This document shows positions 13,522 through 61,211 of a stretch of DNA of 64,000 nt, one piece after another (positions within the stretch are counted from its first letter, which is position 1; every line of letters starts with the position of its first letter). The notes under the pieces are model-generated. The model was given only the letters and a program-made list of their open reading frames with translations. It was not told where the DNA came from and searched no databases. A program made the translations under genes and the position numbers. This DNA is from an uncultured Acidobacteriota bacterium (lineage in GTDB: Bacteria; Acidobacteriota; UBA6911). The stretch spans positions 407,711-471,710 of the forward strand of contig CAWIVH010000012.1 in assembly GCA_963839475.1 (NCBI GenBank). The letters are read 5' to 3'.

Positions 13522-13749
13522 GAAAGCGATCGCTCCTTTCTAATAGTGGACGGATTATACCCCATCCCTTCGGTAATCCGGGCTTTTCATCCTTTTAAAA
13601 AGTGCTGATGCAAGGAAATTGAAGCCCTGGGAGGCAGCTCGCCCCGTAGTTCTTGACTGGGGGGCAAGGTTGCTTTACCTTCGAGCTCGGGATTGCGGCT
13701 TCCCCGGCGGAAGCCTGGCCAAACGCCCCATATTCAAAAGGAGTCATTC

Positions 13750-34800: not shown

Positions 34801-34877
34801 GGCGACGTAGCTCAGATGGTTAGAGCGTGGGATTCATAACCCCAAGGTCGGTGGTTCGATTCCACCCGTCGCTACCA
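34801..34877 (+). tRNA. tRNA-Met (anticodon CAU), elongator type; tRNA-Ile2(k2CAU) not excluded
   Basis: GGCGACGTAGCTCAGATGGTTAGAGC D-arm, anticodon loop TTCATAA, T-arm GGTTCGATTCC, 3' CCA. Closely resembles elongator tRNA-Met. Confidence 0.9.
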
Positions 34878-38712: not shown

Positions 38713-38796
38713 TGTGCAATCTGTCAATCACTATTCGCAAACTATCGTATATTATCCTTGACATCAATGAGTTATAGTTTACAATCTGTGAACTAT
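38713..38796. promoter_or_regulatory. Divergent promoter/operator region of the cro/cI-like switch
   Basis: Two related operator-like repeats (TGTGCAATCTGTCAATCAC at 38713-38731; TTTACAATCTGTGAACTAT at 38778-38796). A near-consensus sigma-70 promoter TTGACA-16-TACAAT (38758-38785) ends ~10 nt before the cI-like ATG (38795), so the cI transcript would be leaderless or nearly so. A leftward TTGACA overlaps the first repeat. Confidence 0.45.
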
Positions 38797-41036: not shown

Positions 41037-42698
41037 GTGGATGCACTCATGACTCGTGTACGTAACAAGAATGAATTCGCTGCCGGCGCCAGGGCTGTAA
41101 TTAGGGAAGCATTCAATATGCTCCCAATTTTTGCGAGATCTCGAACGCAGGCTGTCTACAACTATGTGGCGGTAGCTGAGGCCGATGCCCACCAGAGTGC
41201 CGCAGAGAGCGCCTCGATAGGTCTTGCAGAGAGCCATAGGAGGTTGGTGGAGTCGAGTTCGCATGCAATTCCCGCGATCTATGAAAGATGTCCCGATCGG
41301 GAAGGCGAGAAACCAACAATCGATAGAGCAGTTTTTGAAGAGGCACGATCTCTTTACGATTTTGGGCATAACCTGAGCCAAGTCGAGTACTGCTTCGAAT
41401 TAGCGGAACGAGGACAGTATGAGTTTTTTGTCGCCCAAAGAGATCCGCGCATAACCTTTCGCTACGCATCTGAAACATCCGATCTGGCTGACACGCGTTC
41501 TCGCGCAATGGATGTTTTATCCCTCCATCAACCTCACGCGGTTGAGCCAGCTCAGGTTTCAGCCGGAACTATCATCGAAGAGCTAAAGACTCTCGTTCCA
41601 GCAACATATCCTGCAAGGTGTGAGTACCAATACAGCGATCGTTTGCATCAGATTGTGAATCCATACTCCAGGGCAAAATTGACACGAACCAACGCGCTAG
41701 ATATTCCCCATGACGTTGCAGTAGGACCGTTGGCTATGCATGACCTTCAAGGATTCTGGGCTGCTATCATGGGAATTGTTGACGTTCATACAGCAGCACA
41801 TTGCATTGCTGCCAATGGCGACTTGAGGCGCCTTGCAATTGATACGGTCGTCCTCTGCCAAGCAGAGCATGATTTTGCAGGATTGATTTCAAAAATCTCA
41901 GGTTTGCCGTCGGCGGCAGTTGAATTAGTAATGGGCTGGTACACATATCGAAGTGATGCCGCGAAGGATTCCCCAATCCTTCAACCGTTTCTGCCTCTAT
42001 CAGGAGGCCTCTTATGCCTTCCATCGCCGTTCGTCAACGGGAATAGCTTTGAACGCAATTTCAGAAAACTGATGCATAATCATCCCAAATTGCGGCCGTT
42101 TTCTAATTCAATAGAATCGTGTTTAGAAGACATTGCTTTGAATTCGCTTTCAGAAATCTTCTCAGAACCAAGATTTCGAGTGCAAATCTGCGTGCAAATA
42201 CCTGGGTTGACGGATGTTGACCTTCTGGTTTTTGATCTGGTTACGGGTTTTACTCTCATCATCCAACACAAGTGGTTGCTTGCGCCCGATACACTTCGGG
42301 AATCTGCTTCAAATGATGAAAAACTGGCAAATGGCGTATCGCAGGCTGTCAAATCGCGCGATTTCCTTCGCCAAAATGCCTCTTTTCTCGTTCGGAAACT
42401 CGGCTTGCCCTCTGATCAGCAAATTCGTGGAATTGAAGCGGTTGTTGTTTGCCGGGGTGCTGAACCAACAGGATTTCTCGAATCGACGGCTGTGCCTGTC
42501 ATTAACGAAACTGCCTTTAGAAATCTGCAGACGAAGTTCGAAAACTTGGAGGATCTTTGGGAGCAGACAACAACCCGGCCTGATCAGATTGAAGCAGCAA
42601 AAAAATCCGCCGAGGTACAATCGCACATCCGGCTCTGCGGCTACGAGTTTGTGATCCCAGGGCTCGCAGTGCAAGTGCCGCTTTCGACCAAAGGGTAG
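41037..42698 (+). CDS. Hypothetical 553-aa protein with a NERD/PD-(D/E)xK-like motif; visibly lower GC than neighbours
   Basis: GLTDVDLLVFDLVTGFTLIIQHKW resembles the NERD core (D..LL….G.F.IE.K) with QHK in place of ExK. The rest is unrecognised. A/T-rich stretches (for example 42040-42200). Confidence 0.4.
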   Translation: MDALMTRVRNKNEFAAGARAVIREAFNMLPIFARSRTQAVYNYVAVAEADAHQSAAESASIGLAESHRRLVESSSHAIPAIYERCPDREGEKPTIDRAVFEEARSLYDFGHNLSQVEYCFELAERGQYEFFVAQRDPRITFRYASETSDLADTRSRAMDVLSLHQPHAVEPAQVSAGTIIEELKTLVPATYPARCEYQYSDRLHQIVNPYSRAKLTRTNALDIPHDVAVGPLAMHDLQGFWAAIMGIVDVHTAAHCIAANGDLRRLAIDTVVLCQAEHDFAGLISKISGLPSAAVELVMGWYTYRSDAAKDSPILQPFLPLSGGLLCLPSPFVNGNSFERNFRKLMHNHPKLRPFSNSIESCLEDIALNSLSEIFSEPRFRVQICVQIPGLTDVDLLVFDLVTGFTLIIQHKWLLAPDTLRESASNDEKLANGVSQAVKSRDFLRQNASFLVRKLGLPSDQQIRGIEAVVVCRGAEPTGFLESTAVPVINETAFRNLQTKFENLEDLWEQTTTRPDQIEAAKKSAEVQSHIRLCGYEFVIPGLAVQVPLSTKG

Positions 42699-42915
42699 CC
42701 TGCCTCATCGTGGTCTGATATCCAGGCAGTTGGCAATTCCTTCACATCTCCGACATGAATAGGAAATGGGCATGCCCTGCTTGACCCATGGCTCCTGGCA
42801 AAAATCGCGCAAATTCCAGAGTGGAATAGATTAAGATAAACTGCCATTTTTCTGTTCAGCGGGTGAGTGTCGAAGCATCAATTTGGATTCCGTTGATTCC
42901 AAGGGAGGGGTACCG

Positions 42916-45831: not shown

Positions 45832-46259
45832 TGAAGATCAGGGAAGCAACCTTTGCATTGCGTGTGGTGAGACGCCGTAATGGAGATGCCGGAATCGTCT
45901 ACCGCCGTAAGCTTGACTCCCGGCAGCGCGAGCGATTCACGCGTCTTGGGGCGATCTCTCCGCTCGCGTATACGGCTGGCACGCCTCTGCTCAGAGCTGC
46001 GGTACGCGCGACAGCTGGGCAATCGGCGAAGCTGAGCGCAGGTCCATATCACGCACTCGATCCAGATTGGGGTGCTCGGGTGGCGTGCTATGCGCTTCTA
46101 TCTGCGGGATTGCGCGAGGCAGATAGACTGCGCAAAGCGGCCGAGAACATGCGCAACGCGGATGGCGCTGAAGCCGCGTGGTGGCTGGGCCTCATGATGC
46201 GCCCCAGCGGTCGCCGTGCAATCCGTGCCCTGCGCATTCTTGCTGAGGCAGTTCGGTGA
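45828..46259 (+). CDS. Small hypothetical protein embedded in the module (143 aa)
   Basis: ATGA overlap with the DUF499 stop. Arg/Ala-rich, no motif recognised. Confidence 0.35.
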   Translation: MMKIREATFALRVVRRRNGDAGIVYRRKLDSRQRERFTRLGAISPLAYTAGTPLLRAAVRATAGQSAKLSAGPYHALDPDWGARVACYALLSAGLREADRLRKAAENMRNADGAEAAWWLGLMMRPSGRRAIRALRILAEAVR

Positions 46260-46348
46260 TGAATACATGACTATGGATCTCGACGCTGATCCATGTTGCC
46301 AGGTTTCGAATCTTTGCTGCAAGCTGTTGACTTCCCAATGAGGTATAC

Positions 46349-49324
46349 ATGACCAAGACCCCTCCGCGACTTTTGATTGAAGAGTGGTTACCAGCCGCAG
46401 CAATTGGCGTCGAGTGCATTCGTGAACGGTCCACCGGTCAACAACCGCCTGACAAACGGCTCCATGTGTGGTGGGCGCGCCGTCCACTGACGGTTTCGAG
46501 GGCGGCCGTTCTGGCCTCGTTGCTTCCTGCCGATTTCCCGCGCGACATCTTCGAACGGCTGCTCGGCTTTGGCAGGCCAGGCCATGAGCTCGTCGAGATT
46601 CGAGGGCTCATGGACGCGGCATTTCGAGTACCAGGAGGATTCAATTGTGAACGAGCTTTTAAACGCGCTCTTCGTGATGATGATCTGGAAAACGCGCACA
46701 AGGCAGCTAAGAAGCTCTGGGGACCGGAGATCACAGTGATTGATCCGATGGCTGGAGGTGGTTCAATACCACTCGAATCCTCTCGGCTTGGATTCACCAC
46801 TCTGGCTAATGAATACAATCCTGTCGCGTGTTCAGTGCTGGAGGCGACGATAGATTACCCCTTCCGCTTTGGAGAGGCACTCGCCCGAAAAACTCGAACG
46901 TGGGCAAGAGTCTGGGAGGAGCGCGTTGAGGAACGCTTGGCCCCGTTCTATCCGGTCCATCGTCTAGCCAAGGTCCATGCTTACATTTTTGCCCGCACAG
47001 TACCGTGTCCTGACACACAGCACCCGACGCCGCTTGTACCCGACTGGCATCTCTTAAAGCCCAAGAGCGAGCGCGGTCGCGTTGCCGCTGAACCGCTCGT
47101 GAACAAGCAACAAGGCACCTGGACCGTTCGGATCCGCCAAATCGGCCGTGGCGCTGGCGAGTTGTCCCAGCCACCACGTCCCTCCTTTGATGATGGAAAA
47201 GGAATTTCGCTGTTTACGGGATTCCAAATTCCTGCGGACTACGTTCAATCGATGGCGCTCGCGGGAAAGATGGGGCACGCCCTCTACGCGGTTTGTGTAA
47301 AAACGAACCGGGGCATTGAATTCTGTTCCCCGGAAGACAAGGACGTTATTGCTCTTCGCGCGGCGGAGCGAGAACTCGGCACGAGGCGACCTAATTGGCT
47401 GCGCGCTGGGCTAATTCCAACCGAGAAGGTTCCCAAGGGCGACAAGACGGGAGGTAATGGCGGTAAAGGCACTGACTTGCCACTAAAGAGGGGTGAAAAG
47501 CTTTGGACAGATATGTTTACGCCACGACAACTTCTCTCGATAGGCCTAATGGTTGAGGAACTGGGCAAGCTCAGGTCAGAGGTAACTCGTGCAGAGGGTA
47601 CCGAGCTCGCAGAAGCAGTCATCCATCTGTTGGCGCTCGTGATTGACAAGTTTTTGAACCACAACTGTTCGGGTACCAGATGGGAAAATACACAAGCTGC
47701 TATCAAGAGCCGCATGGACCGCCACGATTATGCATTCAAGACCACCTTCGCCGAAATGCCAACATGCAATGCCGGTGGCGGTCTTGCCTGGGCTATCGAT
47801 AACGTGCTTTTGGCATACCAAGCCATTTCTGAACTTTCTCACCATGTGCGAGCAACTCCAGTAGATATTTCGATGGGTAGTGCAACGACTCTAGCGCAAC
47901 TCAGTAGTAAATCGATCACGGCTGTGGTAGTGGATCCACCTTACGCCGACAACGTACAGTACTCAGAACTCGCAGATTTTTTTTACGTTTGGCTAAAACG
48001 AACACAGGGACACCGACGTCCGGAGTGGTTCTCCACATATTTGTGTGATCACGATCAGGAAGCCGTCGTCAACAAGAGCAGACATCGTGTTGACACTGCA
48101 AGCACCGCAGAGGCTCGCGCAAAGGCTCACGCCTTCTATCAGGGATTGATGACCGATACCTTCAAGGAGGCTGGGCGCATCCTTTGCGATGATGGTGTGT
48201 TGACCGTAATGTTCACACACAAGAAGCAGGAAGCCTGGGAAGCGTTGTTCAACTCGCTTGTTAAAGCAGGGTTTATTATCACAGCCACTTGGCCTGTGAA
48301 AACCGAAAGTGAATACAGCCTCAATCAAGCAAAGAAGAACGCTGCTCAAAGCACAGTAATCCTGGTGGCACGGAAACGTCCGTCCGGCGCAGGCATCGGT
48401 TACTTTGATGCTGCCATGCGCCAGGAAATTAGAAAGAAGGCTCGAGACACTGCGAAACGTCTCCAGGGCGAGGGACTGAACCCTGTCGATCAGTTAGTCG
48501 GATCCTTCGGTCCTGCTATGGAGGTATACAGCCGATTCGATGAGGTCCGTACTGACACCGGGAAAGAGGTCGTCGTATCTCAGGCAATCGACGAAGCATC
48601 TGACGCCGTCAGTAAGTGGAGGGTCGATCAGCTTTCTGATCGCGGCCTCGAAGGGATTGAGGCGGAAGGGAGGTTCGCGCTGCTGTGCTGGGATGTGCTC
48701 GGTGCCGCGGAGTTCCGCTTCAATGAAGCAAAGCTATTGGGCCATGCAGTTGGGATGGATGTCGACCAGCTTGCCGCAGCCGGACTTGTCACCAAGACAG
48801 GTGACAAGATTCAAATGTTGTCGGCGAGAGACCGCCGGAGAAGCAAGGCGTTGGAGCCGGACGAGGTAGTCGAGACGCTCTTCGGCCTTGTAACCGTAGG
48901 AGGCAAGAAGGCCAAGAAAAAGGACGCTCTCAAGGTCCATCCGAATGACCCGCAATTCCGCACGGCGCTCGACGCGTGCCATGCTCTCGCCCTGCGGTAC
49001 ATTGAAGCCGGGAACCCGGCCGGCGGGATTGGCGCAGCAAGGGCGCTAGTACGACAGCAGAACTGGAGTAAGGATTCAGCAGCAGCAAAGCTTATGGAAG
49101 CGTTAGTCCATGCTGCGCCGCCTGCTCTTCACCATGAAAAGGGAAAGACCTCGGCAGCGACGAAGTTCCCTGAATTCCGCGCCTGGCACCAGCTGCTCAA
49201 GCCCCTGTTTGGCATCGAGCCGCCCGACTGGACCGAAAAAGCTCCACCACAGGGTGTGCTGTTTGCGGAACCGGAAGTTGCCGAAGATAACGAGGAGTAC
49301 GACGAGGAAGAATCGGATGAATAG
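46349..49324 (+). CDS. DUF1156-type N6-adenine DNA methyltransferase
   Basis: N-terminal LIEEWLPAAAIGVECIRE…RLHVWWARRPL is the DUF1156 hallmark. The DPPY catalytic motif is at VVVDPPYADNVQYSELADFFYVWL. Confidence 0.8.
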   Translation: MTKTPPRLLIEEWLPAAAIGVECIRERSTGQQPPDKRLHVWWARRPLTVSRAAVLASLLPADFPRDIFERLLGFGRPGHELVEIRGLMDAAFRVPGGFNCERAFKRALRDDDLENAHKAAKKLWGPEITVIDPMAGGGSIPLESSRLGFTTLANEYNPVACSVLEATIDYPFRFGEALARKTRTWARVWEERVEERLAPFYPVHRLAKVHAYIFARTVPCPDTQHPTPLVPDWHLLKPKSERGRVAAEPLVNKQQGTWTVRIRQIGRGAGELSQPPRPSFDDGKGISLFTGFQIPADYVQSMALAGKMGHALYAVCVKTNRGIEFCSPEDKDVIALRAAERELGTRRPNWLRAGLIPTEKVPKGDKTGGNGGKGTDLPLKRGEKLWTDMFTPRQLLSIGLMVEELGKLRSEVTRAEGTELAEAVIHLLALVIDKFLNHNCSGTRWENTQAAIKSRMDRHDYAFKTTFAEMPTCNAGGGLAWAIDNVLLAYQAISELSHHVRATPVDISMGSATTLAQLSSKSITAVVVDPPYADNVQYSELADFFYVWLKRTQGHRRPEWFSTYLCDHDQEAVVNKSRHRVDTASTAEARAKAHAFYQGLMTDTFKEAGRILCDDGVLTVMFTHKKQEAWEALFNSLVKAGFIITATWPVKTESEYSLNQAKKNAAQSTVILVARKRPSGAGIGYFDAAMRQEIRKKARDTAKRLQGEGLNPVDQLVGSFGPAMEVYSRFDEVRTDTGKEVVVSQAIDEASDAVSKWRVDQLSDRGLEGIEAEGRFALLCWDVLGAAEFRFNEAKLLGHAVGMDVDQLAAAGLVTKTGDKIQMLSARDRRRSKALEPDEVVETLFGLVTVGGKKAKKKDALKVHPNDPQFRTALDACHALALRYIEAGNPAGGIGAARALVRQQNWSKDSAAAKLMEALVHAAPPALHHEKGKTSAATKFPEFRAWHQLLKPLFGIEPPDWTEKAPPQGVLFAEPEVAEDNEEYDEEESDE

Positions 49325-49371
49325 CATCATGCGATCCGAAATGTGGATCCGTTGGTAATGGGCCAAGACTA

Positions 49372-52300
49372 ATGAGCGACAGTTACCTGCAAGAACGGTC
49401 ATGGCGAAGATTTCTTCGCGGGCCTGATCCCGCCCTCCTGGAAGAACTCTACGTCCCTGCATTAGCGTCCGCCGTAGGATATGATCGTTGTTGTTCCTAT
49501 TTCTCCAGCTCGGTTCTGGCAGCCGCAGCACGAGGTTTCGGCCGGTTGATTGAGCGGCTCGAGGCCATGGGTGATAGTGCTCCGCGCCCTGCAATTCGTC
49601 TGGTCGTAAACGAGGAATTGATAGAAGAGGATGTCCGCGTTCTTACCGAGACCGGCGACATCGATACCCTGGAGGAGGTCCTCAACCGGCGTTTTAAAAA
49701 TCCTAAGGAGATGTTGGAAAAACAGCGGCTCGCCATGCTCGGCTGGCTGGTGAAGAAAGGGCTTCTCCAGGTTCGCGTCGGTGTCATGCGCCAAAGCGGA
49801 GGCATCGTCCACGCAAAGTTCGGCATTGCGACGGATCATGCCGGGGATGCAATAGTCTTTAGTGGCAGCGGAAACGAATCAGCCTCAGGACTCCTGGCAA
49901 ACTATGAACGTCTCGAAGTATCCACCTCGTGGGAAGATCCAGTTCGCCTCCGGGAATATCGGGACGAATTCGAATCCCTCTGGAACGATAGCCATCCCGA
50001 TGTCCATACAGTTTCGCTGCCGGAGGCTCTCCGGCTGAAATTGATTAAACTGGCTCCCAAGGAACCTCCGATCATTGAGCCGTCGAATGCCGCCGCCAGA
50101 CATAAAGCGGCAATGCTCTGGCGTTTTATCGTCGAAGCCCCCTATCTGGAGAATGGAGGCCCGTCTTGTGATGCGACCGCAATGGTGGATTTATGGCCGC
50201 ATCAGCGCCGGGTCGTCGAGGAAGCAGCCGAAGCATGGCCGGATGGACGCCTCCTTTGTGACGAAGTCGGGATGGGAAAAACCATCGAAGCAATCCTGGT
50301 ACTGCGGCGCCTCATGGCGGGTCGAGGAGTACGACGGGCGCTGCTCCTGCTTCCGGCAGGACTCCTTAAACAGTGGCAGGGCGAACTGCGCGAAAAAGGT
50401 GGACTTGTGTTCCCACGCCTCGAGGGCGTGAATACTTTGGTTTGGCCGGATGACCAGATTCAAAAAGTATCAGGCCTGCCTGAGGCCCTAACGCAGGATT
50501 TCCTCTTGATGAGCCGCGAGACTGCCCGGACGGAGGGCAACTTTCCACACCTCCTCGCCGCCGAATCCTGGGATTTGGTAATCCTCGATGAAGCTCACGC
50601 CGCCAGGCGTCGTGAGCAGGTAGAGGGGGAGTTTAATCGGGGAACGCTTCTGTTGGACCTTTTGAGGAAGTTGCAGCTGCACAAAAAAACCCGCGGCATC
50701 CTCCTCCTTAGCGCAACGCCCATGCAAACGCATCCCTGGGAGCCATGGGATTTGCTCACAATCCTAGGCGAAGGGGGACGATGGCTCGCCGATTTTGCGG
50801 GTGTCCGGAACTACTATGGGATCATTGCAGAGCTTGGAAGGGGCGGATGTGATCTGGTAGATGCTCTGAAAGCAGCAGAGCTGATAGTAGCAGATCCGCG
50901 ATTTCCTAAGGCGCCACAAGAACTGAACCTCGTGAAATTGGAATCTACTGATGCGATTGCCCGGGCTATTGCATTCGCTCCGCCAACCCGCCGGTCAAAA
51001 GTCGCTGAGTGGCTCCGCCGAAGTTCACCTCTTGCCCGGCGGATGCATCGGAACACTCGCTCCACTCTCAGGCAATATCATGCCGCCGGTCTCCTGTCCG
51101 CACCGCCTCCCAGCAGGGTCGTAAATGACGTAGTCTTTGACTTCAAAGATGAAGGCGAGCGCCATGTATATGATTCCATAACCCAATACATTGAGCGGCG
51201 ATTTCAGGAATTGGAGGCGGAAAAACCCGGTAAGGGCTTTGTGATGACAATCTATCGTCGGCGTGCCTCCAGTTCTCCCCTGGCGCTGGAAAGAAGCCTG
51301 CGGCGCCGGAGGGATGGCCTAGTGCGCGTCGTTGAACAGCGCGCCTACGACACGTGGATTCCGTACGAGGAAAACGTAGACAACCGCGACCTGGATGACC
51401 TTGGCGAAGTGGAGATGGGTGAACGGATATCTGCGGCACTCCCAACCAACCCGAAAATTGCCCGGGCCGAATTAACCGATGTGGATCACATCCTTGAAGA
51501 TCTTCAATCATTGAGGGGTCGGGACAGCAAGAGAGACCGCTTCTTCCAGGAATTGCGACGAGTAACTGAGGACGGGCGTTCGGTCCTGATTTTCACCGAA
51601 TACTCCGACACGATGGAATACATCCGCGAGAACCTGGTCACTCATTACGGAGCTGCCTTGGGCTGCTACAGCGGTGAGGGCGGCCAAATCTGGGATGGAC
51701 AGGGCTGGAAAACTGTTACCAAAGATGCCATTACGCAGGAACTGCATGCAGGGCGGCTGCAGGCTCTGGTATGCACAGATGCAGCAAGCGAGGGACTCAA
51801 CTTGCAGGCCGCCGGCGCCGTAATCAATTACGACCTTCCATGGAATCCGAGCAAGGTGGAGCAGCGGATTGGCCGCGTCGACCGCATCGGTCAGAAGTTG
51901 ATCGATGTGCGCGTCGTCAATCTCTTCCTCGAACACAGCGTTGACGAACGCGTCTACAAACTTCTGCGGCAGCGTTGCGGTCTGTTTGAACACTTCGTTG
52001 GAGCGATGCAGCCGGTGCTGGCGCGTGCTCGGAAGATGTTGCTAGGACGAGAGCCAGAGAGTCTGGTAGCACTGGAAGACTCGGTCAGCGACGTGGGTGC
52101 AGACATACTTGCCAACGAGAACTACCTGGAGAGCCTAGCGGAGACAGCATCTGTGTCGGACCCACCAGTGGCGCGGGAAGATCTGGAATTGGCGCTTGAG
52201 GCGTTAGACGGATCTTTCGGGCCTCGCGCGCGTTTGGATCACAAGAAATCACGGCAGGTAGTTCAGACGGGCACATCGAGACGACTCGAATTTGGTAGCA

Positions 52301-52962
52301 CCACGCAGGTGTTGGAAAGAGATCGAAAGCTCCTGCCACTAACGGCTTTGAGCGGCGATCTTTTCGCCCTCGCAAACAATCTAGGGCGGCCGGGCGAGTG
52401 CCTGCCATTGGTAATCGGAACCCATCAGCAGGGGGCATTCCGCCGGTCGCTTGCATATTGGGTTGGAGATGGCCAACTGACTCAGGTCGACAGCATGATT
52501 GATCTGCGAGTTCGGCTGGAATCTTGGCATGGCAGCTTTCCCAAACCCGCCGAATGGCTCGCGGCCGAAGCCAAGGCACGACGCGAGGCGCGGAGGCAAG
52601 TGGAACAGATGGCAAACCGGGCCGCGGAACGCGAACGCCTCGCTCTAAAGCGGCAACTAGAAGCTGCACGCCTGCGCCTGAAGCGCGAACTCGGCCGATA
52701 TCTCGCCTGCCTCGATTTGGGGACAGAAGACCTGAACGCTGTCCTTCACCAACAAATGACCAGGGATATCGTCGGCGCTGAGCGTCTCAAAACCGCCTGG
52801 TCAAAGCTCGGCGGCTATCCGGAATGGGAACCGGAACTAATTCGAGAGTTGGACCAGTTCACTCAGTCGCTATTGGAAGGCCAGCGCCGCGCCCGCCTTC
52901 TTGGCAAGGAGCTCGATGCCGCGTTGGAAGATCCGCGCTGGGATGCACGGCTATCTGCCTAG
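49372..52962 (+). CDS. PLD-family (HKD) nuclease domain fused to a SNF2-family helicase
   Basis: N-terminal HAKFGIATD…FSGSGNESASG (HxK…D…GSxN PLD motif). Helicase motifs LCDEVGMGKTIEA (I), LVILDEAHAARRRE (II), VCTDAASEGLNLQAAGAVINYDLPWNPSKVEQRIGRVDRIGQ (V/VI). Confidence 0.8.
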   Translation: MSDSYLQERSWRRFLRGPDPALLEELYVPALASAVGYDRCCSYFSSSVLAAAARGFGRLIERLEAMGDSAPRPAIRLVVNEELIEEDVRVLTETGDIDTLEEVLNRRFKNPKEMLEKQRLAMLGWLVKKGLLQVRVGVMRQSGGIVHAKFGIATDHAGDAIVFSGSGNESASGLLANYERLEVSTSWEDPVRLREYRDEFESLWNDSHPDVHTVSLPEALRLKLIKLAPKEPPIIEPSNAAARHKAAMLWRFIVEAPYLENGGPSCDATAMVDLWPHQRRVVEEAAEAWPDGRLLCDEVGMGKTIEAILVLRRLMAGRGVRRALLLLPAGLLKQWQGELREKGGLVFPRLEGVNTLVWPDDQIQKVSGLPEALTQDFLLMSRETARTEGNFPHLLAAESWDLVILDEAHAARRREQVEGEFNRGTLLLDLLRKLQLHKKTRGILLLSATPMQTHPWEPWDLLTILGEGGRWLADFAGVRNYYGIIAELGRGGCDLVDALKAAELIVADPRFPKAPQELNLVKLESTDAIARAIAFAPPTRRSKVAEWLRRSSPLARRMHRNTRSTLRQYHAAGLLSAPPPSRVVNDVVFDFKDEGERHVYDSITQYIERRFQELEAEKPGKGFVMTIYRRRASSSPLALERSLRRRRDGLVRVVEQRAYDTWIPYEENVDNRDLDDLGEVEMGERISAALPTNPKIARAELTDVDHILEDLQSLRGRDSKRDRFFQELRRVTEDGRSVLIFTEYSDTMEYIRENLVTHYGAALGCYSGEGGQIWDGQGWKTVTKDAITQELHAGRLQALVCTDAASEGLNLQAAGAVINYDLPWNPSKVEQRIGRVDRIGQKLIDVRVVNLFLEHSVDERVYKLLRQRCGLFEHFVGAMQPVLARARKMLLGREPESLVALEDSVSDVGADILANENYLESLAETASVSDPPVAREDLELALEALDGSFGPRARLDHKKSRQVVQTGTSRRLEFGSTTQVLERDRKLLPLTALSGDLFALANNLGRPGECLPLVIGTHQQGAFRRSLAYWVGDGQLTQVDSMIDLRVRLESWHGSFPKPAEWLAAEAKARREARRQVEQMANRAAERERLALKRQLEAARLRLKRELGRYLACLDLGTEDLNAVLHQQMTRDIVGAERLKTAWSKLGGYPEWEPELIRELDQFTQSLLEGQRRARLLGKELDAALEDPRWDARLSA

Positions 52963-53129: not shown

Positions 53130-56100
53130 GTGGTTATGACCAAGCGCTCATATGGATGGAAGCGTTTCTGGTGCCCGAGGGGAGGAACCTTTAGCCTCTC
53201 TGATGGTGGGTATTTGATCGACCCAGATTCTGAGTATGGGCGTTTGCTGCATCCTGGCGCCGTTTCATTCTCTGAGATGCAAGGTTCCCCCTGCCTGATG
53301 CTGTTGGGTGAACCCGGCATTGGCAAGACAACAGCAATGGCGAGCCACTATTCACTAAGTGTCGCAGAGGCAAGTAAGACAGGTGACGCTGTTCGTTGGG
53401 TGGATCTCAATTCCTTTCAGACGGATGCCATGCTTGTCAGGGAGATCTTTGAGTCTGATGATTTCCAAGAATGGCTGAACGGTACGCACCGATTACATCT
53501 TTTCCTCGATAGTCTCGACGAGTGTCTACTGCGAATCGATTGCGTCACCGCACTCCTGATCAAGGAGCTGAACAAATGCCCCATCGAGAGGCTTGCCCTC
53601 AGGATAGCATGTCGGACAGTGGATTGGCCTGAAGGGATGGAGGGTGCGTTAACCCATCTTTGGGAAAATCAGAGTGTGGACCCATATGAGCTTCTTCCAC
53701 TCCGCCGCCTGGACGTTCAAGAAGCTGCTCGTATCGAAGGTGTCGATCCTCAGGCGTTCTTGGCAGAAATCGAGGACAAACAGGCCGTGCCACTGGCCAT
53801 TAAGCCGATTACGCTCGCCTTCCTCCTGAATAAATATCGAAAAGAGAAACAGCTCCCAACACGCCAAGCAATGCTGTATCGGGATGGCTGCCGCTTGCTC
53901 TGTGAGGAGCTGAACCAAAGTCGAAGGGATTCGCGCCAAATTGGCAGCCTGACAGCTGAACAGCGCCTAATGGTGGCTGGCCGCCTTGCTGCCGTGACAA
54001 CGCTAGGCAACCGCTTTGCTGTCTGGACCGGGACAGATTTGGGAGAGATTCCCGAGTCGGATGTTGCCGCTGCCGAACTGGTTGGCGGTAGCGAGGAAAT
54101 TGATGATAACGCTTTTGTGATTTCCGAGGCTGCCATTTTAGAAACTCTGGGAACAGGCCTTTTCTCTGCCCGTGGACCGCACCGGCTCGGTTGGGCACAC
54201 AAGACGTATGCAGAATTCCTCGCTGCTTTTTACTTGGTAAACAAAAGGTTTAGCCCCAAACAAATACTGACAATTCTGACTCATCCAGGAGACCCGGAAG
54301 CGAATCTAATACCGCAGCTCCATGAAACAGCCGTGTGGGTTGCAGGAATGGTGCCTGATGTTTTCAACCTCATCATGGAGAAGGAACCTGAAGTTCTCCT
54401 AAAAAGCGATGTTGCAGCAGCTGATGTCAGTGATCGCGAGCGTTTAGTAGACAAACTCTTGATAAGTTATGATAAGGGAAAGCTATTGGACCGAGATCGA
54501 AATCTTCGGAGCCAATACCGCAAGCTCTCCTGTCCCACATTGGCAGAACAATTGCGTCCATATATTCGCGATACATCCAAAGACGTTGTGGCCCGTCGAG
54601 CTGCAATTCAGATGGCGTACGCCAATGAAGTCAAAGAGCTTCAGGGTGACCTCCTGGATATTGCCCTGGATCCCCAGCAATCCCACGACATTCGCGTTAA
54701 TGCCGCTTACTCTCTCGTGGAAATGGGTGATGAGGAAATGCGGCTAAGACTAAAACCGCTCGCGGAAGGCACTGCAGGTGAAGATCCGGACGACGAATTA
54801 AAGGGCTGTGGCCTGTCAGCTTTATGGCCATCACACTTGACCGCGGCTGATGTATTTTCCATCTTGAGCCTACCAAAACGCGAGAGTTTATTTGGCGTGT
54901 ATCGACGCTTTCTACTGCATGAGTTGCCAGACAAGTTAAAGCCCGAGGATTTGCCAATAGCCCTTGACTGGATCCTAAAGAATGTCCAGATACATGCTTT
55001 CCCCTATGCTCTCGAGGGACTGAAAGATGCTATTATCCTGAAGGCTTGGCAGTCCCTTGAGATTCCCGCTGTACTCGATGCCTTCGCTATAACCGTTCTA
55101 TTGCTCCTGAAATCAGATCACGAAATCATCAGTCGCTTTGCGAGCCGTGATAATAAACAATTCCTCGGTGGCCAGGAGGATAGGCGACTTCTGGTTGCAA
55201 AGCGAGTTATGCAGTACATCGGACATCATGAAGAAGAGAACTTGTTTTGGTTAGGGTACGGTCAAACTTCCCTGATAAATTCCGCTGATGTCCCATGGAT
55301 TATTGACATAATGCGCGGATCTAAGTCAGACGTGATTCAATCCAACCTCGCAAAACTTGTAAGGATTATTCTTGACTGGAGAAATCCCGACCATCTTGAT
55401 GCGATCATCGTCTCAAGTCGTGAAATCCCAGCTCTCCAAAGAGAGTTCGACTGGTTTCTTAATTTTGTTGAATTCACATCTCCGCGCGCCGAGGAGATGA
55501 AGAATAGATATGCAGAGGAGCAAAGTTGGCAGCAGCGCCCTGCAAGGCCCCCGTTGGACCCTCCGCCAGATGAGCGAATAATAACCGCTTTAAATCAGTG
55601 TGAGCCTGGGGCACATCTCCAATTTATTCAGCTTACCTTTGACATGACTCTTGAGCCCAATAGTACGGAGTATCCGCCGGCGTTTTCATCCGATTTGACG
55701 GACTGTCCTGGATGGAAGAACGCCGACCCTTCAATAAGGGCTCGGATCATTGAAGCTGCGAAACAGTACATCTTTCAAGTGGATCCAGAGACTGCGTCGT
55801 GGTTGGGAAGCAATACCTATCCCTACAAAATGTTAACGGGCTATAAGGCATTCCGGCTTATCTTTCGGGAAGCCCCGATGATGTTGTCGGTCCTTACAAC
55901 TGCTACCTGGCAGAAATGGATAGGGACCCTTCTAACATACCCAATCTACAGCGACAGCCCGGAGGAGGAGTTCAAGAAAGCCCTGCTGAAGGTTGCCTAT
56001 CCACATGCCGCAGACGATCTGGTGAACTGTGTTTTCATTCTCATTGATAAAGCCAATGGGAAGAGCGAACCGCCTTTTGAATTGGAGGTAATCCTAGGCA

Positions 56101-57332
56101 TATGGGATGACCGTCTTGGAAAAGCCCTGTTAGCCAAGGTCCAGAATGAAAGTCTTAGCCCTCCCTGTTTGACCTTTCTGCTTGAGATGCTTCTCAAGCA
56201 GAAAGCCCCAGGGGCGAATGCGTTTGTCCGATCCCTTGTGCAAACACAGCACATCATAGACCCCGGATACCGCAACAGAGCGTTGACAGCAGCGCGCTGC
56301 CTTCTCTTCTCGTCCGACGATGCCGGATGGTCCGAAATCTGGCCAACCATTCTTGCAGACGTTGCTTTCGGCCGCGACCTCATTGCGATGTCGGTAGACC
56401 CCGTTGAGGGTCAGAATGCCCGCATTCCGAAGAAGTTATCAGAAGATCAGTTGGCAGATTTGTTCATTTGGGTTGCCAACGAATACCCGTACTCGGAAGA
56501 TCCAAATATTAATGGAGCTGGCCCCGCAGGATCCAGGCAAGGTATTGCCTGGTGGAAGAACGCAATATTGCACGAGCTGATCGCACGTGGAAATTATTCT
56601 GCGGTGCATGCGATGCAGCGCATCGCTAGCGCATTGCCCCAGCTCGATTGGCTACGGTGGTCGGTATATCAGGCTCTGGAGAGTGCCCGGATTCAGACGT
56701 GGACACCCGCAAAACCACAGGAGTTGGTGACCTATTTTCGCGATCAGGACAAACGACTTGTCCAAAACGGTAATCAGCTGCTCGAAGTCATCATTGAGTC
56801 TCTCGAAAGGATGGAAGCAAGGTTGCAGGGCGAAACTCCTGCCGCAATATATCTTTGGAATAAGATTGATCAAAAGCTCTATCGTCCCAAAGATGAGAAC
56901 GAGCTTTCCGACTTCGTAAAGATCCATTTTGATTCTGATCTGAGGGATAGAGGAATCATCGTCAACCGTGAGGTCGAGATCCGCCGTGGGCAGGAAACTG
57001 ATATCCGTGTAGATGCACTTGTACGAAAGAACCAGGACATTTTTGATCAAGTCACGGTAATAATCGAGACAAAGGGATGCTGGCATCGAGAGCTAGAGGT
57101 CGCCATGGAAAGACAACTTCTCGACCGCTACCTGAGGGAGAACCGGTGCCAATACGGACTATATCTTGTAGGATGGTTTTCTTCCGACAAATGGGACGAC
57201 GGAGACTATAGAAAAAGGGTAGCGCCATCATACTCGATCGAGGAGGCGCGCCGTCGATTCGAAGACCAGGCTGCGCAAGTGCCGAGAAATAAGGAGATAA
57301 TCCGGTCCTTCGTTTTGGATATCACCATCTGA
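53130..57332 (+). CDS. 1400-aa STAND/NACHT-like P-loop NTPase - HEAT/ARM-like repeat array - C-terminal PD-(D/E)xK nuclease-like domain
   Basis: Walker A LLGEPGIGKTTAM, Walker B LHLFLDSLDEC near the N-terminus. About 800 aa of HEAT-like repeats (for example DIALDPQQSHDIRVNAAYSLVEMGDEEMRL). C-terminal E…DIRVDALV…VIIETKGCW matching E-D-ExK restriction-endonuclease-fold spacing. Confidence 0.7.
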   Translation: MVMTKRSYGWKRFWCPRGGTFSLSDGGYLIDPDSEYGRLLHPGAVSFSEMQGSPCLMLLGEPGIGKTTAMASHYSLSVAEASKTGDAVRWVDLNSFQTDAMLVREIFESDDFQEWLNGTHRLHLFLDSLDECLLRIDCVTALLIKELNKCPIERLALRIACRTVDWPEGMEGALTHLWENQSVDPYELLPLRRLDVQEAARIEGVDPQAFLAEIEDKQAVPLAIKPITLAFLLNKYRKEKQLPTRQAMLYRDGCRLLCEELNQSRRDSRQIGSLTAEQRLMVAGRLAAVTTLGNRFAVWTGTDLGEIPESDVAAAELVGGSEEIDDNAFVISEAAILETLGTGLFSARGPHRLGWAHKTYAEFLAAFYLVNKRFSPKQILTILTHPGDPEANLIPQLHETAVWVAGMVPDVFNLIMEKEPEVLLKSDVAAADVSDRERLVDKLLISYDKGKLLDRDRNLRSQYRKLSCPTLAEQLRPYIRDTSKDVVARRAAIQMAYANEVKELQGDLLDIALDPQQSHDIRVNAAYSLVEMGDEEMRLRLKPLAEGTAGEDPDDELKGCGLSALWPSHLTAADVFSILSLPKRESLFGVYRRFLLHELPDKLKPEDLPIALDWILKNVQIHAFPYALEGLKDAIILKAWQSLEIPAVLDAFAITVLLLLKSDHEIISRFASRDNKQFLGGQEDRRLLVAKRVMQYIGHHEEENLFWLGYGQTSLINSADVPWIIDIMRGSKSDVIQSNLAKLVRIILDWRNPDHLDAIIVSSREIPALQREFDWFLNFVEFTSPRAEEMKNRYAEEQSWQQRPARPPLDPPPDERIITALNQCEPGAHLQFIQLTFDMTLEPNSTEYPPAFSSDLTDCPGWKNADPSIRARIIEAAKQYIFQVDPETASWLGSNTYPYKMLTGYKAFRLIFREAPMMLSVLTTATWQKWIGTLLTYPIYSDSPEEEFKKALLKVAYPHAADDLVNCVFILIDKANGKSEPPFELEVILGIWDDRLGKALLAKVQNESLSPPCLTFLLEMLLKQKAPGANAFVRSLVQTQHIIDPGYRNRALTAARCLLFSSDDAGWSEIWPTILADVAFGRDLIAMSVDPVEGQNARIPKKLSEDQLADLFIWVANEYPYSEDPNINGAGPAGSRQGIAWWKNAILHELIARGNYSAVHAMQRIASALPQLDWLRWSVYQALESARIQTWTPAKPQELVTYFRDQDKRLVQNGNQLLEVIIESLERMEARLQGETPAAIYLWNKIDQKLYRPKDENELSDFVKIHFDSDLRDRGIIVNREVEIRRGQETDIRVDALVRKNQDIFDQVTVIIETKGCWHRELEVAMERQLLDRYLRENRCQYGLYLVGWFSSDKWDDGDYRKRVAPSYSIEEARRRFEDQAAQVPRNKEIIRSFVLDITI

Positions 57333-57595
57333 GCTATGTGAAATAAGTGATTGATCTACTGCGCGGTTGAGAATCGAAGAAGCTGAGAGTCCAGAACAGC
57401 AATTGCCAAAACGGGTGGTTTTGCAGACAGGTGCTCCAAATTGTGCCAGGCCTGTCATGCGGGCTTTGTTCGAAAACCGAATGACGCATAAGCCTCAAGG
57501 TTCTGAGGTGTCTCCTATCGGCTACAATGCCGATGCTTTCAGTTTGTGCTCGATCTCCGCTGTGTAACGCAATCCTGATTCTTGAGAGGGGCATC

Positions 57596-59899
57596 ATGCT
57601 CGATGAACGGATCAAAGAGAAACTTGTGGAGGGCTACAAGCGATTGCAGGAGGAGGGAAAACTCCTCTCGATGGCCCAACTTGAGGAGGCTTACCGGACC
57701 TTCCGCAGCCGGTTCGGACCTGAGCGGCTAGCCAATCTGGGCGGAGAAGCGTTGCTAAACCTGATGCATGCTCATGGCAACAAGGACAGCCTCGTATACT
57801 GGCTCGAATTCAAAGATGACGAGGAGTTCCCGGACCATTTCGGAGGTATTGGCGGGGGAAGCGCCCTTAAGTTCGGAATCTTCCGCCGCAAGGAGACAGG
57901 TTCCTGGGCGACCGCCGACGAGAGCAACAATCCCAAAGACATAACCCTTGAAGAGGCAATCGCGTTCGCACAGCGGCACCGGGATGAGCTGCTCAAAGGC
58001 GTAGAGGTCCTAACGAAGCTCCCCCCCAAGGGCACGGACCAGGACTACCTGAATCTCCAAGAGGAATTGGACCGCATTGCCCCGAGCGTCAGCGATCTCG
58101 CATGGGGGCACAAGTATTTCAGCCTCATCTTCCCTGAGAAACTCGATGATTATCACGTCGCGGATTTGCAGCGTTTTCACCTACTTAAGATGATGGTGCT
58201 GCCCCCCGAGGGCAGAGGCCGATACTTGTGCGCCGGCAGATTCGTGGCTGCCGCGGCCGAACTCGATATCCCCATGAATCATCTCACCACCGTCTTGAAT
58301 CTCGTCAATCTCGCCAACGGAAAGAAACATCGTTACTGGCGGGTCGGAACGAGCGATGGCACCAAGCCTCGGAATCGATGGAGCCTGATGCGGGATGAGA
58401 ATTGCGTGGCCGTCGGATGGCCGGACGTCGGCGACCTGTCAGCATTCGATGGGAGCAAGGAGTCCAGAGAGAAACTCCGCGGTTTGATGGCGGAAAAATA
58501 CCCGAGCGTTGCCAGTCAGGTGGGGAACGCGACAGGCCAGCTCTTCAGCTTCGTCCAGACCATTCAGAAGGGTGACCTCGTGCTGGCCGCCGACGGAGCC
58601 ACAGTGCTCGGGATCGCGAGGGTCGAAGGTGATTACCATTACGATGCCTCGTCCGATTTCCCGCATCGCCGTGATGTTGTCTGGCTTGCAAAAGAGGAAT
58701 GGAAAATGCCAAACCCGGAAGGCCTCCAGACAACCGTTCGGGAGGTAAAGAAATACCCAGAAAACATTCTGGAGGTTACGCGGCGCGTCCTCGAAACGCC
58801 GCCCAAGACGCCAACGGATGGGCCACCGATCCACGTTCCAATCCGCCGACTTCCGGTGATTCCGGAACGAATCAACTCCGCTGTAGAACGCAAGGGGCAG
58901 GTCATCCTATACGGTCCCCCCGGGACCGGCAAGACCTACTGGGCGGAAGTGGCAGCGAGGGAGATCGTGGCCGTATGCGAGTTTGGGAAGACCTATCAAG
59001 AGCTCGACACTAAGCAAAGGGAGGTCATCATTGGAACCGGCAAGAATGAAGGTCAGGTCAGATTGTGTTGTTTTCACCCGGCCTATGGCTACGAGGATTT
59101 CATAGAGGGCTATCGTCCTCACTCTCCCCACGGGCAAGTCGTCTTCGATCTCGAGGATGGCATTTTCAAACGATTGTGCAGGGACGCGGAGCGATCAAGC
59201 GGGAAACGCTTCTTTTTGATCATTGACGAGATCAACCGTGGCGACATACCCCGGATTTTTGGAGAGCTTCTGACCATTTTGGAAAAGGACAAGCGCGAAA
59301 AGTCGATCCTCCTGCCAGTTAGCCGCGAATCCTTCCAAGTTCCCAAGAACGTTTTCCTGATCGGGACAATGAACACTGCCGACAGGTCTATCTCGTTGAT
59401 AGATGCCGCCTTGCGCAGACGCTTTGCGTTTATAGAGTTGATGCCTGACAGTTCGCTGCTGGGGAACCAAAGTATTGCAGGACTCCCGCTGAGGCCCTGG
59501 TTTGAGGCTCTGAACAAGCGGGTCTGCGAGCACGTGGGACGCGATGCCCGCAACCTTCAAATCGGCCATTCATACCTTCTCTCCGGCGGACACCCTGTGA
59601 AGGATCTCGCGGCCTTCAAGAAAGCTATTCAAGACGACATCATTCCGCTACTGGAGGAGTACTGCTACGATAACCCGATCGCGCTGGAAAATATCCTTGG
59701 GAAAGGCCTATTCGACTCGCGAGCGCAACGGGTTCGTCATGAGCTTTTCGATGTAGAGAACGAAGAAAAGCTCGTTCAGGCCTTAATAGAGCCCAGCCCT
59801 GAAATCTTGGGCTCGGCACCTGCGCTGAAGAGCATGACGAGTGAAGAAGAAAGCAGCGCTGAGGAAGGCGACTCCAGTGAAACCGACGCCACTAAGTGA
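57596..59899 (+). CDS. mcrB: McrB-like AAA+ GTPase subunit with a ~440-aa N-terminal extension (PUA/EVE-like candidate reader)
   Basis: ILYGPPGTGKTYWA Walker A, FLIIDEINRGDIPRIFGELLT, and McrB-specific LIGTMNTADRSISLIDAALRRRF. The N-terminal HRYWRVGTSDGTKPRNRWSLMRDENCVAVGWPDVGDL… is PUA/EVE-like. GAGAGGGG SD before ATG 57596. Confidence 0.85.
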   Translation: MLDERIKEKLVEGYKRLQEEGKLLSMAQLEEAYRTFRSRFGPERLANLGGEALLNLMHAHGNKDSLVYWLEFKDDEEFPDHFGGIGGGSALKFGIFRRKETGSWATADESNNPKDITLEEAIAFAQRHRDELLKGVEVLTKLPPKGTDQDYLNLQEELDRIAPSVSDLAWGHKYFSLIFPEKLDDYHVADLQRFHLLKMMVLPPEGRGRYLCAGRFVAAAAELDIPMNHLTTVLNLVNLANGKKHRYWRVGTSDGTKPRNRWSLMRDENCVAVGWPDVGDLSAFDGSKESREKLRGLMAEKYPSVASQVGNATGQLFSFVQTIQKGDLVLAADGATVLGIARVEGDYHYDASSDFPHRRDVVWLAKEEWKMPNPEGLQTTVREVKKYPENILEVTRRVLETPPKTPTDGPPIHVPIRRLPVIPERINSAVERKGQVILYGPPGTGKTYWAEVAAREIVAVCEFGKTYQELDTKQREVIIGTGKNEGQVRLCCFHPAYGYEDFIEGYRPHSPHGQVVFDLEDGIFKRLCRDAERSSGKRFFLIIDEINRGDIPRIFGELLTILEKDKREKSILLPVSRESFQVPKNVFLIGTMNTADRSISLIDAALRRRFAFIELMPDSSLLGNQSIAGLPLRPWFEALNKRVCEHVGRDARNLQIGHSYLLSGGHPVKDLAAFKKAIQDDIIPLLEEYCYDNPIALENILGKGLFDSRAQRVRHELFDVENEEKLVQALIEPSPEILGSAPALKSMTSEEESSAEEGDSSETDATK

Positions 59900-61211
59900 A
59901 GGCTCCCCCATTCCGATAACACTTAGCGAGTGGGACATACTCACACCGAAATCCTGCCCAGAACTGGAAGACCTGTTCCTTGACGGGGATGCTGCAACGC
60001 TCAAACTCGTGGAGGGATTGTCCAATTCCGGATTGCTTCAAGTGACGGAACTGAGATCCGGCCTGATGATCAAGACATTTTCCTATGTGGGCCGGCTGAG
60101 ATTGGGAAACCTGAAGATTGCTATCAACCCCAAGATCGAGAGCAACCACCTCCTGGGTCTGCTTCGCTACGCATTTGGATTTCGGAACCTCCGTTTGGCC
60201 GCTAGAGTCGAGCAGAACGTTGGGGCATCAGGCTTTGAGGATCTGCTGGTCAGCCAGCTCAACGCCGAGGTGAAAGAGCTCATCGCGAGAGGGCTCCGGC
60301 GGGCGTACCTGCGATCTGAAGATGACCTGGTTTCGCCAAGGGGCAAGATCGATATTCAAAAACTGGCAAACCGCATCGGTATCGTCAGCCCCAAACTGCC
60401 ATGCTGCCATTACCCCAGGACCGAGGACATCATGCTGAACCGGGTTCTCGGGGCAGGATTGAAGTTGGCTGCTTCAGTTGCGGATGATTTGGGGTTGAAG
60501 CGGGAATCCAATCGACTTGCGGACTTATTCGTGGACCGTGTTTCGCTGATTCGTCTCAATGCGTCGGTTCTCGATTCTCTTGAGCGTCAGATGAACCGGC
60601 TAACGGTCGCCTACGAACCGGCCTTCTCAATCATCAGGCTGCTGTGCGAATCGCAAGGAGTCCTTTTCGAGGGAATCGGGGCTCCGATTCGCCTGCCTGG
60701 ATTTCTCTTCGACATGAACCGATTCTTTCAGGCCCTGGTTTCGCGCTTCCTCAGGGAAAACCTCCCTGATTGGACTGTGAGAGATGAGTATCGCCTGACC
60801 GGAATGATGCGGTACGCGCCTGAGTTCAATCCACTGCATCGAACGTCGCCCAGCCCGCGGCCTGATTTTGCGGTCATGTCGGGGGAGAAAGTCGTCGCGA
60901 TTCTCGACGCCAAATACCGGGACCTCTGGGAGGAGAAACTGCCTCGCGAAATGCTGTATCAGCTGGCAGTCTATGCCATCTCGCGATCTGAGGGGAAGGC
61001 CATCATTCTATACCCGACCGAGCATCCTGAAGCCCGAGAAGCCCGAATAGACGTTCACGACCCGATTTCGCGCCGAGAAATCGCCAGGGTATGGCTGCGA
61101 CCCGTGATCCTGCCCCACCTGGCACTACTGGTGATGACGCACCGCTCAGCAAAGACAGTTCGGGATTGCGCTTCATATGCCAAGTGGCTTGCATTCGGTT
61201 GTGGTGCCTAA
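59841..61211 (+). CDS. mcrC: McrC-like PD-(D/E)xK endonuclease subunit
   Basis: PDFAVMSGEKVVAILDAKYRDLW…YQLAVYA is the McrC D…DAKY nuclease core. Overlaps the mcrB 3' end; GTG 59877 is an alternative start. Confidence 0.8.
   Translation: MKKKAALRKATPVKPTPLSEGSPIPITLSEWDILTPKSCPELEDLFLDGDAATLKLVEGLSNSGLLQVTELRSGLMIKTFSYVGRLRLGNLKIAINPKIESNHLLGLLRYAFGFRNLRLAARVEQNVGASGFEDLLVSQLNAEVKELIARGLRRAYLRSEDDLVSPRGKIDIQKLANRIGIVSPKLPCCHYPRTEDIMLNRVLGAGLKLAASVADDLGLKRESNRLADLFVDRVSLIRLNASVLDSLERQMNRLTVAYEPAFSIIRLLCESQGVLFEGIGAPIRLPGFLFDMNRFFQALVSRFLRENLPDWTVRDEYRLTGMMRYAPEFNPLHRTSPSPRPDFAVMSGEKVVAILDAKYRDLWEEKLPREMLYQLAVYAISRSEGKAIILYPTEHPEAREARIDVHDPISRREIARVWLRPVILPHLALLVMTHRSAKTVRDCASYAKWLAFGCGA

Follow-up and report, generated by a model that had tools for sequence, protein, structure and literature searches.

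Erebus and Hypnos are anti-phage systems that were reportedly introduced by van den Berg and co-workers in 2024. Together with bNACHT64, they were pooled as Avs10, anti-phage STAND proteins whose activator is the major capsid protein (Lee et al., Nature 2026, PMC13581612; preprint PMC12803255). For this pooling, sensor structures were clustered by Foldseek (80% coverage, template modelling (TM) score ≥0.4) and the STAND clade in a tree was considered as well; different sensor clusters detect different phage proteins, and the toxicity of Avs10 requires the effector domain (Lee et al., PMC13581612). In the typical Avs layout, the effector is N-terminal and the sensor is C-terminal (PMC13581612). 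We have analyzed a stretch of 64,000 nucleotides (nt) from an uncultured Acidobacteriota bacterium (assembly GCA_963839475.1, contig CAWIVH010000012.1, positions 407,711 to 471,710 of the forward strand), hereafter called the window. A gene located at 53136..57332 of the window codes for a protein of probably 1398 amino acids (aa) with a NACHT NTPase at its beginning and a PD-(D/E)xK nuclease domain at its end. This inverted order, NTPase first and effector last, had been recognized in the original prediction, which was made from the sequence alone, and the domain map of the protein confirmed it. The same prediction considered the architecture undescribed and the gene the leading candidate for the undescribed system in the window. 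This view had to be abandoned: the protein shows colinear homology to the anti-phage proteins EruA and HyoA, HyoA has the same layout, and the inverted layout is the normal layout of a described, experimentally validated family. The protein represents an unnamed new subfamily of the Erebus/Hypnos/Avs10 NACHT proteins with C-terminal effectors and not a new type of system. It falls into an already named defence family at the level of the superfamily, and not into the named equivalogs, as its scores are far below theirs.

The open reading frame (ORF) is uninterrupted from 53130 to 57332 on the forward strand, as deduced from the ORF list and the translation; all parts of the gene mentioned below lie on this strand. 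A family alignment was constructed comprising the protein and 57 full-length homologs, each 42-51% identical to it (58-member profile), and all statements on invariant residues refer to this alignment. The ATG at 53136 is the likely start codon and is preferred over the GTG at 53130, because the homologs conserve the N-terminus from M1 onwards and database entry P0121 has a length of exactly 1398 aa; the gene thus comprises 1398 codons plus the stop codon. Invariant residues near the N-terminus are W8, R10, F11, W12, L21, and G25. The NCBI-derived entry P0001 (1362 aa) begins 36 codons later and lacks the residues encoded by 53136-53243 including WKRFWCPR. Its start was probably mis-annotated, since the omitted residues, among them WKRFWCPR, are invariant across the family. 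The conserved N-terminal segment aa 1-49 (YGWKRFWCPR...; 53136..53282) is predicted to form short β-strands, with strands at aa 11-14 in the AlphaFold2 model, which are packed on the NTPase. It is not an effector domain, and the alignment showed that it is missing in HyoA and in an EruA-like protein.

The NACHT nucleotide-binding domain (aa 50-190; 53283..53705) was identified by its motifs, weak Pfam matches, and Foldseek; it is followed by the remainder of the NACHT module, which consists of helical and winged-helix domains (aa 191-425; 53706..54410) and was delimited by secondary structure and the AlphaFold2 model. Both Walker motifs had been predicted within the first ~130 aa. They were found there, Walker A (GEPGIGKTT) at aa 58-66 (53307-53333) and Walker B (LHLFLDSLDE) at aa 120-129 (53493-53522), with G58, G61, G63, K64, D125, D128, and E129 being invariant; these residues agree with the NACHT-clade patterns GxxGxGK[ST] for Walker A and hhhhD[GS]hDE for Walker B. 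The sensor-1 motif RIACRT with R160 is located at 53601-53621 and the winged-helix motif GWAH355KTYAEFLAA at 54189-54227. R160, H355, Y358, and the EFLAA stretch show no or hardly any variation, and we take R160 and H355 to be the functional sensor-1 arginine, which follows strand 4 in the NACHT clade, and the functional winged-helix histidine from general knowledge of NLR structures. The Walker and sensor-1 motifs line up with those of HyoA and the EruA-like protein, and the motif H..(E/D)(F/Y)L(A/S/T)A is common to all three proteins.

Pfam NACHT (PF05729) reached only 15.5 bits versus a cut-off of 26.7 (expectation value (E) 0.016) and nSTAND5 16.1 bits versus a cut-off of 34, the sub-threshold Pfam matches spanning aa 45-174. 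NACHT homology was therefore assigned from the motifs, the Foldseek matches, and the models of EruA and HyoA. AlphaFold2, which was run with family alignments, yielded a model of aa 1-1194 with a predicted local distance difference test (pLDDT) score of 87.6 and a predicted TM-score (pTM) of 0.73. The model contains an α/β NTPase core followed by helical and winged-helix domains up to about aa 425. When it was compared with the Protein Data Bank (PDB) by Foldseek, NLRP3, NAIP/NLRC4, NLRC4, and NOD2 ranked first (E 2.5e-7 to 1e-6). The STAND/NACHT assignment of the original prediction is thus supported by invariant motifs and by the structural matches to NLRP3, NLRC4, and NOD2. A generic AAA+ ATPase was also considered and ruled out by the NACHT-specific motifs and the NLR matches.

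The NACHT module is followed by an all-α, HEAT/ARM-like solenoid (aa 426-1194; 54411..56717), which presumably serves as the ligand sensor. In the AlphaFold2 model, the solenoid is unbroken and consists entirely of helices from about aa 430 to 1190, with pLDDT mostly >85; importin-β, Kap123, SF3B1, and CAND1 were the Foldseek matches found after the NLRs. No Pfam HEAT family matched the protein at E up to 1, and a faint HEAT_2 match was detected in a few homologs. About 800 aa of HEAT/ARM-like repeats had originally been proposed. A HEAT/ARM-like solenoid is indeed predicted by AlphaFold2 and Foldseek, but it comprises ~770 aa and contains no Pfam HEAT repeat; as far as the model goes, its likeness to HEAT/ARM proteins is clearly structural only. 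The conservation profile revealed aa 661-830 as the least conserved stretch in the family, whereas conservation is highest in the NACHT and nuclease domains.

The C-terminal PD-(D/E)xK nuclease domain (aa 1195-1398; 56718..57329) is the presumed effector. It contains E1254 (within 56889-56903), D1289 in the motif TDIRVDALV (within 56994-57023), E1311-x-K1313 in the motif IETK (within 57060-57083), and Q1327..Y1332 (57114-57131). E1254, D1289, E1311, and K1313 are invariant; this pattern is not a chance finding, because it is maintained in homologs only 42-51% identical to the protein. The PD-(D/E)xK superfamily is defined by the restriction-endonuclease α-β-β-β-α-β core, whose second strand bears an acidic residue and whose third strand bears (D/E)xK. 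This core is present in the AlphaFold2 model of aa 1195-1398 (pLDDT 86.7, pTM 0.87), in which one core strand begins with D1289 and the following one ends with E1311-x-K1313. BamHI, McrC, AF1548, and Can2 were the best structural neighbors. No Pfam nuclease family passed on the C-terminal domain, Mrr_cat was not matched, and PDDEXK_3 matched in one out of 20 members only (E 0.026). Sequence searches of the PDB with the full-length protein and with the C-terminal profile yielded nothing significant. The nuclease assignment therefore rests on fold and motifs, as Pfam provided no family for this domain. A weak match to TetR_C_4 (aa 1244-1329) was dismissed as a fortuitous similarity of helices within the nuclease domain. 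The nuclease with its E...D...ETK pattern had been predicted correctly; however, the domain comprises ~200 aa instead of ~110 aa, and the Mrr label could not be maintained.

The NCBIfam release of June 2026 provides equivalog models for EruA and HyoA, which presumably are the Erebus and Hypnos proteins. Model NF058535 ("NACHT domain-containing antiphage protein EruA") matched the protein with 236.7 bits (E 6e-70) at aa 46-800, corresponding to profile positions 19-739 of 1318, and model NF058534 (HyoA) matched with 172.2 bits (E 1e-50). The last 204 aa alone matched positions 1140-1317 of 1318 of the EruA profile (E 2e-18) and positions 1240-1418 of 1430 of the HyoA profile (E 1e-11). Hence, the homology is colinear from the P-loop to the nuclease, since the tail alone matches the C-terminal ends of both models; the EruA profile covers aa 46-800 and approximately 994-1396 in the same order. 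In the literature, the names EruA and HyoA were found in unrelated senses only; it was the paper by Lee et al. that led to Erebus and Hypnos.

Proteins for comparison were found by tblastn against plasmids. WP_050598590 from a Klebsiella plasmid reached 1422 bits on the HyoA model and is a bona fide HyoA, as is another protein scoring 1408 bits; an EruA-like protein from Vibrio reached 777 bits and matched the EruA model from end to end. The Klebsiella HyoA and the Vibrio protein both begin directly with a NACHT domain, continue with a long helical region, and end in a domain with the pattern E...D...ExK...Q. Alignment of the 58-member profile with the Klebsiella HyoA by hhalign gave a probability of 98.9% (E 1.3e-17) with 1224 aligned columns, which extend from column 58 to 1416 of 1419 of the profile and from 46 to 1423 of 1425 of HyoA, i.e., over the end-to-end layout of Avs10-type proteins. 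The nuclease profile aligned with the tail of HyoA at 85.6% and with the tail of the EruA-like protein at 94.7% probability, the D, ExK, and Q columns being matched. On the EruA model, the protein scored 237 bits and true HyoA 168 bits; it is closer to this model than true HyoA and therefore lies within the sequence span which is pooled as Avs10. A HyoA gene was also found on the P. aeruginosa plasmid pSE5369-VIM (L008, 5407-9746). It is split into an ORF of 1265 aa and an overlapping ORF of 195 aa and is probably a frameshifted copy located between insertion sequence elements.

Like Erebus EruA, a single protein of ~1300-1400 aa, the protein carries the NACHT domain at the extreme N-terminus and shares the motifs GEPGxGKT, hhLDxLDE, and RIACRT..W, the helical sensor, and the C-terminal E...D...ExK...Q nuclease domain; the Erebus-like Vibrio protein aligns with it at both ends. 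Unlike Erebus, it has an extra conserved N-terminal segment of 45 aa and a different taxonomic range. With Hypnos HyoA it shares an identical three-part layout with NACHT first and nuclease last, and the nuclease motifs of Hypnos correspond to its own (RPD to TD, ELK to ETK, and QLIGDYLRENQ...GVFLLIW to QLLDRYLRENR...GLYLVGW). However, the context of Walker A is different (AAGAGKT in Hypnos, GEPGIGKT here), and identity in the NACHT region is 21%. Avs1-4, Avs7, and most bNACHT proteins also combine a STAND NTPase with a large sensor made of helical repeats and an exchangeable effector and follow a single-gene abortive-infection logic; PD-(D/E)xK effectors are common among them, but the protein studied here has its effector behind the sensor. 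Animal NLRs (NLRP3, NLRC4/NAIP, NOD2) provide the closest NACHT structures, with the sensor-1 Arg and the winged-helix His being kept; in contrast, they possess leucine-rich repeat sensors in place of a HEAT/ARM-like solenoid, N-terminal death-fold effectors, and no nuclease.

A scan of one genome per species revealed 138 relatives, and 80 loci were kept. Relatives occur in many cyanobacteria, in Bacteroidales, Chloroflexota, Acidobacteriota, Planctomycetota, Actinomycetota, and Myxococcota, and additionally in Paenibacillus, Gammaproteobacteria, and ANME-2/Methanosarcinales archaea. According to our own count from the scan table, the match reaches into the nuclease domain in about 46 of the 80 loci. 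Eleven complete ORFs match only up to about aa 1198, which is the boundary between sensor and nuclease, and then continue with other domains. Pfam identified these alternative tails as TIR_2 in Anabaena (E 1e-14), CHAT in Scytonema (E 3e-9) and Blastocatellia (E 4e-7), and SIR2_2 in Polyangium (E 2e-18); an α/β-hydrolase-like tail matched weakly, below the cut-off. Apparently, the C-terminus is an effector slot, because the same NACHT and sensor parts carry exchanged, typical defence effectors at a fixed junction. The nuclease-tail profile matched 3420 clusters at 50% identity, at least 1578 of them at E up to 1e-30. The nuclease domain always lies at the extreme C-terminus in the 150 best clusters, and full-length proteins comprise ~1380-1470 aa. 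A phage collection contained only two weak NACHT-only matches; within this set, phages do not carry the family.

Some further tails and combinations were observed among the relatives. Four Nostoc-type relatives (L030, L032, L033, and L072; tails at ~13520-14095) contain a conserved module of ~135 aa (...GGKAFIFEALQKASDQWWVAPFVKAIEAGVKGE) with no Pfam match, and L063 (13568-14080) was noted together with them. One cyanobacterial relative has a tail with a hydrophobic, predicted transmembrane helix. The Nostoc-type module and the transmembrane tail may be uncharacterized effectors. On a B. cereus plasmid (L099, 4001-7978), a protein of 1325 aa shares only aa 1-629, i.e., the NACHT domain and the first part of the sensor, at 33% identity; its remainder differs, which suggests a further combination of sensor and effector in the superfamily.

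The gene is located on a genomic island. A tRNA-Met gene (34801-34877, forward strand) and a tyrosine recombinase gene of the XerC/D type directly after it (349 aa; 34947-35996, reverse strand) mark the left end of this island, which carries all defence genes to at least 61211. A repeat of the 3' end of tRNA-Met of at least 16 nt was not found downstream within the window, and the right end of the island is unmapped. The island genes described in the following are all encoded on the forward strand. A repressor with helix-turn-helix and S24 peptidase domains (LexA/CI-like; 38795-39634) lies upstream of the Fic protein SoFic (39758-40927), which matches its PADLOC model nearly end to end (E 1.7e-108). 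The next ORF (553 aa; 41037-42698) has a guanine + cytosine (GC) content of 0.49, the lowest of the island, is located directly upstream of the DUF499 gene, and matches nothing in Pfam, NCBIfam, or PADLOC; it is a candidate for a further defence or accessory gene. An Hma-like system (42883-52962) encodes, in this order, a DUF499 ATPase, a small DUF7680 protein (45828-46259), a DUF1156 methylase, and a protein of 1196 aa in which a PLD nuclease domain is fused to an SNF2 helicase. Its proteins scored 140, 204, and 338 bits versus NCBIfam cut-offs of 1200, 1000, and 1100; as all scores are well below these equivalog cut-offs, the system is a divergent Hma variant. On the other side, the gene is followed by an McrBC pair (57527-61211) consisting of an McrB-like protein and McrC. 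With 790 aa, the McrB-like protein is exceptionally long; residues 285-420 in its N-terminal region match PADLOC PDC-S02 and type II restriction endonuclease models, and its ORF overlaps the longest McrC ORF by 59 nt. Two more statements of the original prediction thus hold true: the gene stands in a row of defence genes, between the Hma-like system and McrBC, and it is A/T-richer than the chromosome, with a GC content of 0.505 versus 0.563 for the window and 0.55-0.57 for its neighbors. This difference in GC content suggests that the gene was acquired separately from its neighbors.

We propose, with a probability of about 75%, that the protein is a stand-alone, single-chain STAND/NACHT receptor of the Erebus/Hypnos (Avs10) superfamily which acts as follows. 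In the resting cell, it would be an autoinhibited monomer with a nucleotide bound in the NACHT domain. Upon infection, the ~770-aa solenoid would bind a protein made by the phage, the leading candidate being the HK97-fold major capsid protein. By analogy to Avs10, we rate the chance that the capsid protein is the trigger as nearly even at best. Binding of the ligand would free the NACHT module and lead to oligomerization, which would gather the C-terminal PD-(D/E)xK domains into an active nuclease; degradation of DNA by this nuclease would then abort the infection. The single-gene abortive-infection reading of the original prediction fits the absence of a conserved neighbor, the swapping of the C-terminal effector in relatives, and the location in a defence island.

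Several findings weigh against this proposal. The protein remains below both equivalog cut-offs (237 versus 1000 bits for EruA, 172 versus 1200 bits for HyoA) and is a homolog, not an equivalog; pairwise identity to HyoA and the EruA-like protein is only ~21-22% (~22% for the latter), a search with PADLOC-DB 2.0 gave nothing meaningful for the protein, and about half of the genomic contexts examined are not defence islands. Furthermore, aa 800-994 are not aligned by the EruA model and aa 661-830 are the most variable part within the family; recognition of the capsid protein is therefore not simply transferable. That EruA is the Erebus protein and HyoA the Hypnos protein is our assumption; it relies on the names and on the fact that each of the two is an anti-phage NACHT family consisting of a single protein. 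With the same architecture and effector logic, the sensor could respond to a trigger other than the major capsid protein, either another conserved phage protein or a host perturbation, and the clade would then be a functionally separate Avs family; this reading, which overlaps with our proposal, is possible although clearly the less probable one. The sensor is the part most diverged from EruA and HyoA, with BLASTP alignments ending at about aa 536-597 and aa 800-994 unaligned, sensor clusters differ in the phage protein sensed (Lee et al.), and the family occurs mainly in cyanobacteria, anaerobes, and archaea, at a great distance from the Avs10 representatives, which are enterobacterial. Yet the 1224 columns aligned by hhalign run colinearly through the sensor with HyoA, and Erebus and Hypnos are about as distant from each other (168 bits) but form one capsid-sensing family in Lee et al. 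More specifically, the deep-branching clade might be a functionally new Avs family which senses a non-capsid component of the phage. This is suggested by an identity of ~21% to the Hypnos and Erebus-like proteins, by scores more than fourfold below the curated cut-offs, and also by at least 1578 tail clusters, a broad range of taxa including actinomycetes, and uncharacterized tails; we regard it as unlikely.

It is far less probable that the gene is an accessory of the adjacent Hma-like system or of a BREX-type system, for instance its nuclease arm. The gene and the PLD-SNF2 gene upstream of it share a strand and are separated by 170 bp devoid of a terminator-like site, and independent homologs were found inside a BREX operon (Moorella sp. 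Hama-1), directly after BrxL on a conjugative element, and, in one metagenomic case, directly after another Hma-like system. However, other homologs adjoin AbiEi, lie in a recombinase-rich mobile element, or occur on the Nostoc plasmid pCC7120epsilon among other NACHT genes, and several are isolated among housekeeping genes. When the neighboring Hma-like, McrBC, and BREX proteins were used as tblastn queries, essentially nothing was detected in the 80 homolog-bearing loci, and DUF499, DUF1156, and PLD-SNF2 homologs were found in none of them. The gene is thus autonomous, as it has no conserved partner in 80 loci, and its low GC content also argues against a common origin with its neighbors. 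Genes embedded in Hma or BREX are read as independent defence systems in the preprint on "embedded defences" (Payne et al.). This preprint does not mention the family; that family members are often found within or next to BREX and Hma systems fits the embedded-defence pattern described there. A role of the PD-(D/E)xK domain as a DNA-binding or sensing module instead of a killer, or a function of the whole protein in non-defence STAND signalling, is more improbable still. No sequence-based nuclease family matched, and some contexts are housekeeping. Catalytically silent PD-(D/E)xK domains which only bind DNA exist in other proteins. Here, however, the set of E, D, and ExK is invariant in the family and is kept in HyoA and the EruA-like protein, relatives carry the known defence effectors TIR, SIR2, and CHAT at the same position, and the toxicity of Avs10 is effector-dependent (Lee et al., PMC13581612).

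Taken as a receptor of the Erebus/Hypnos superfamily, the protein extends the layout with NACHT first and effector last beyond enterobacteria and pseudomonads. This layout belongs to a large and ancient family reaching cyanobacteria, strict anaerobes, and archaea, which exchanges nuclease, TIR, SIR2, CHAT, and hydrolase-like modules in its C-terminal slot. PADLOC-DB 2.0 and the NCBIfam equivalog cut-offs miss the subfamily; therefore, annotation pipelines label its members "hypothetical" or "NACHT domain protein". The value of the finding is modest and consists in annotation and in a wider range for a known sensor family, which now includes cyanobacteria, anaerobes, and archaea. A model of the subfamily together with the identity of the trigger would extend capsid sensing to the phages of environmentally important hosts, or would reveal a new trigger there.

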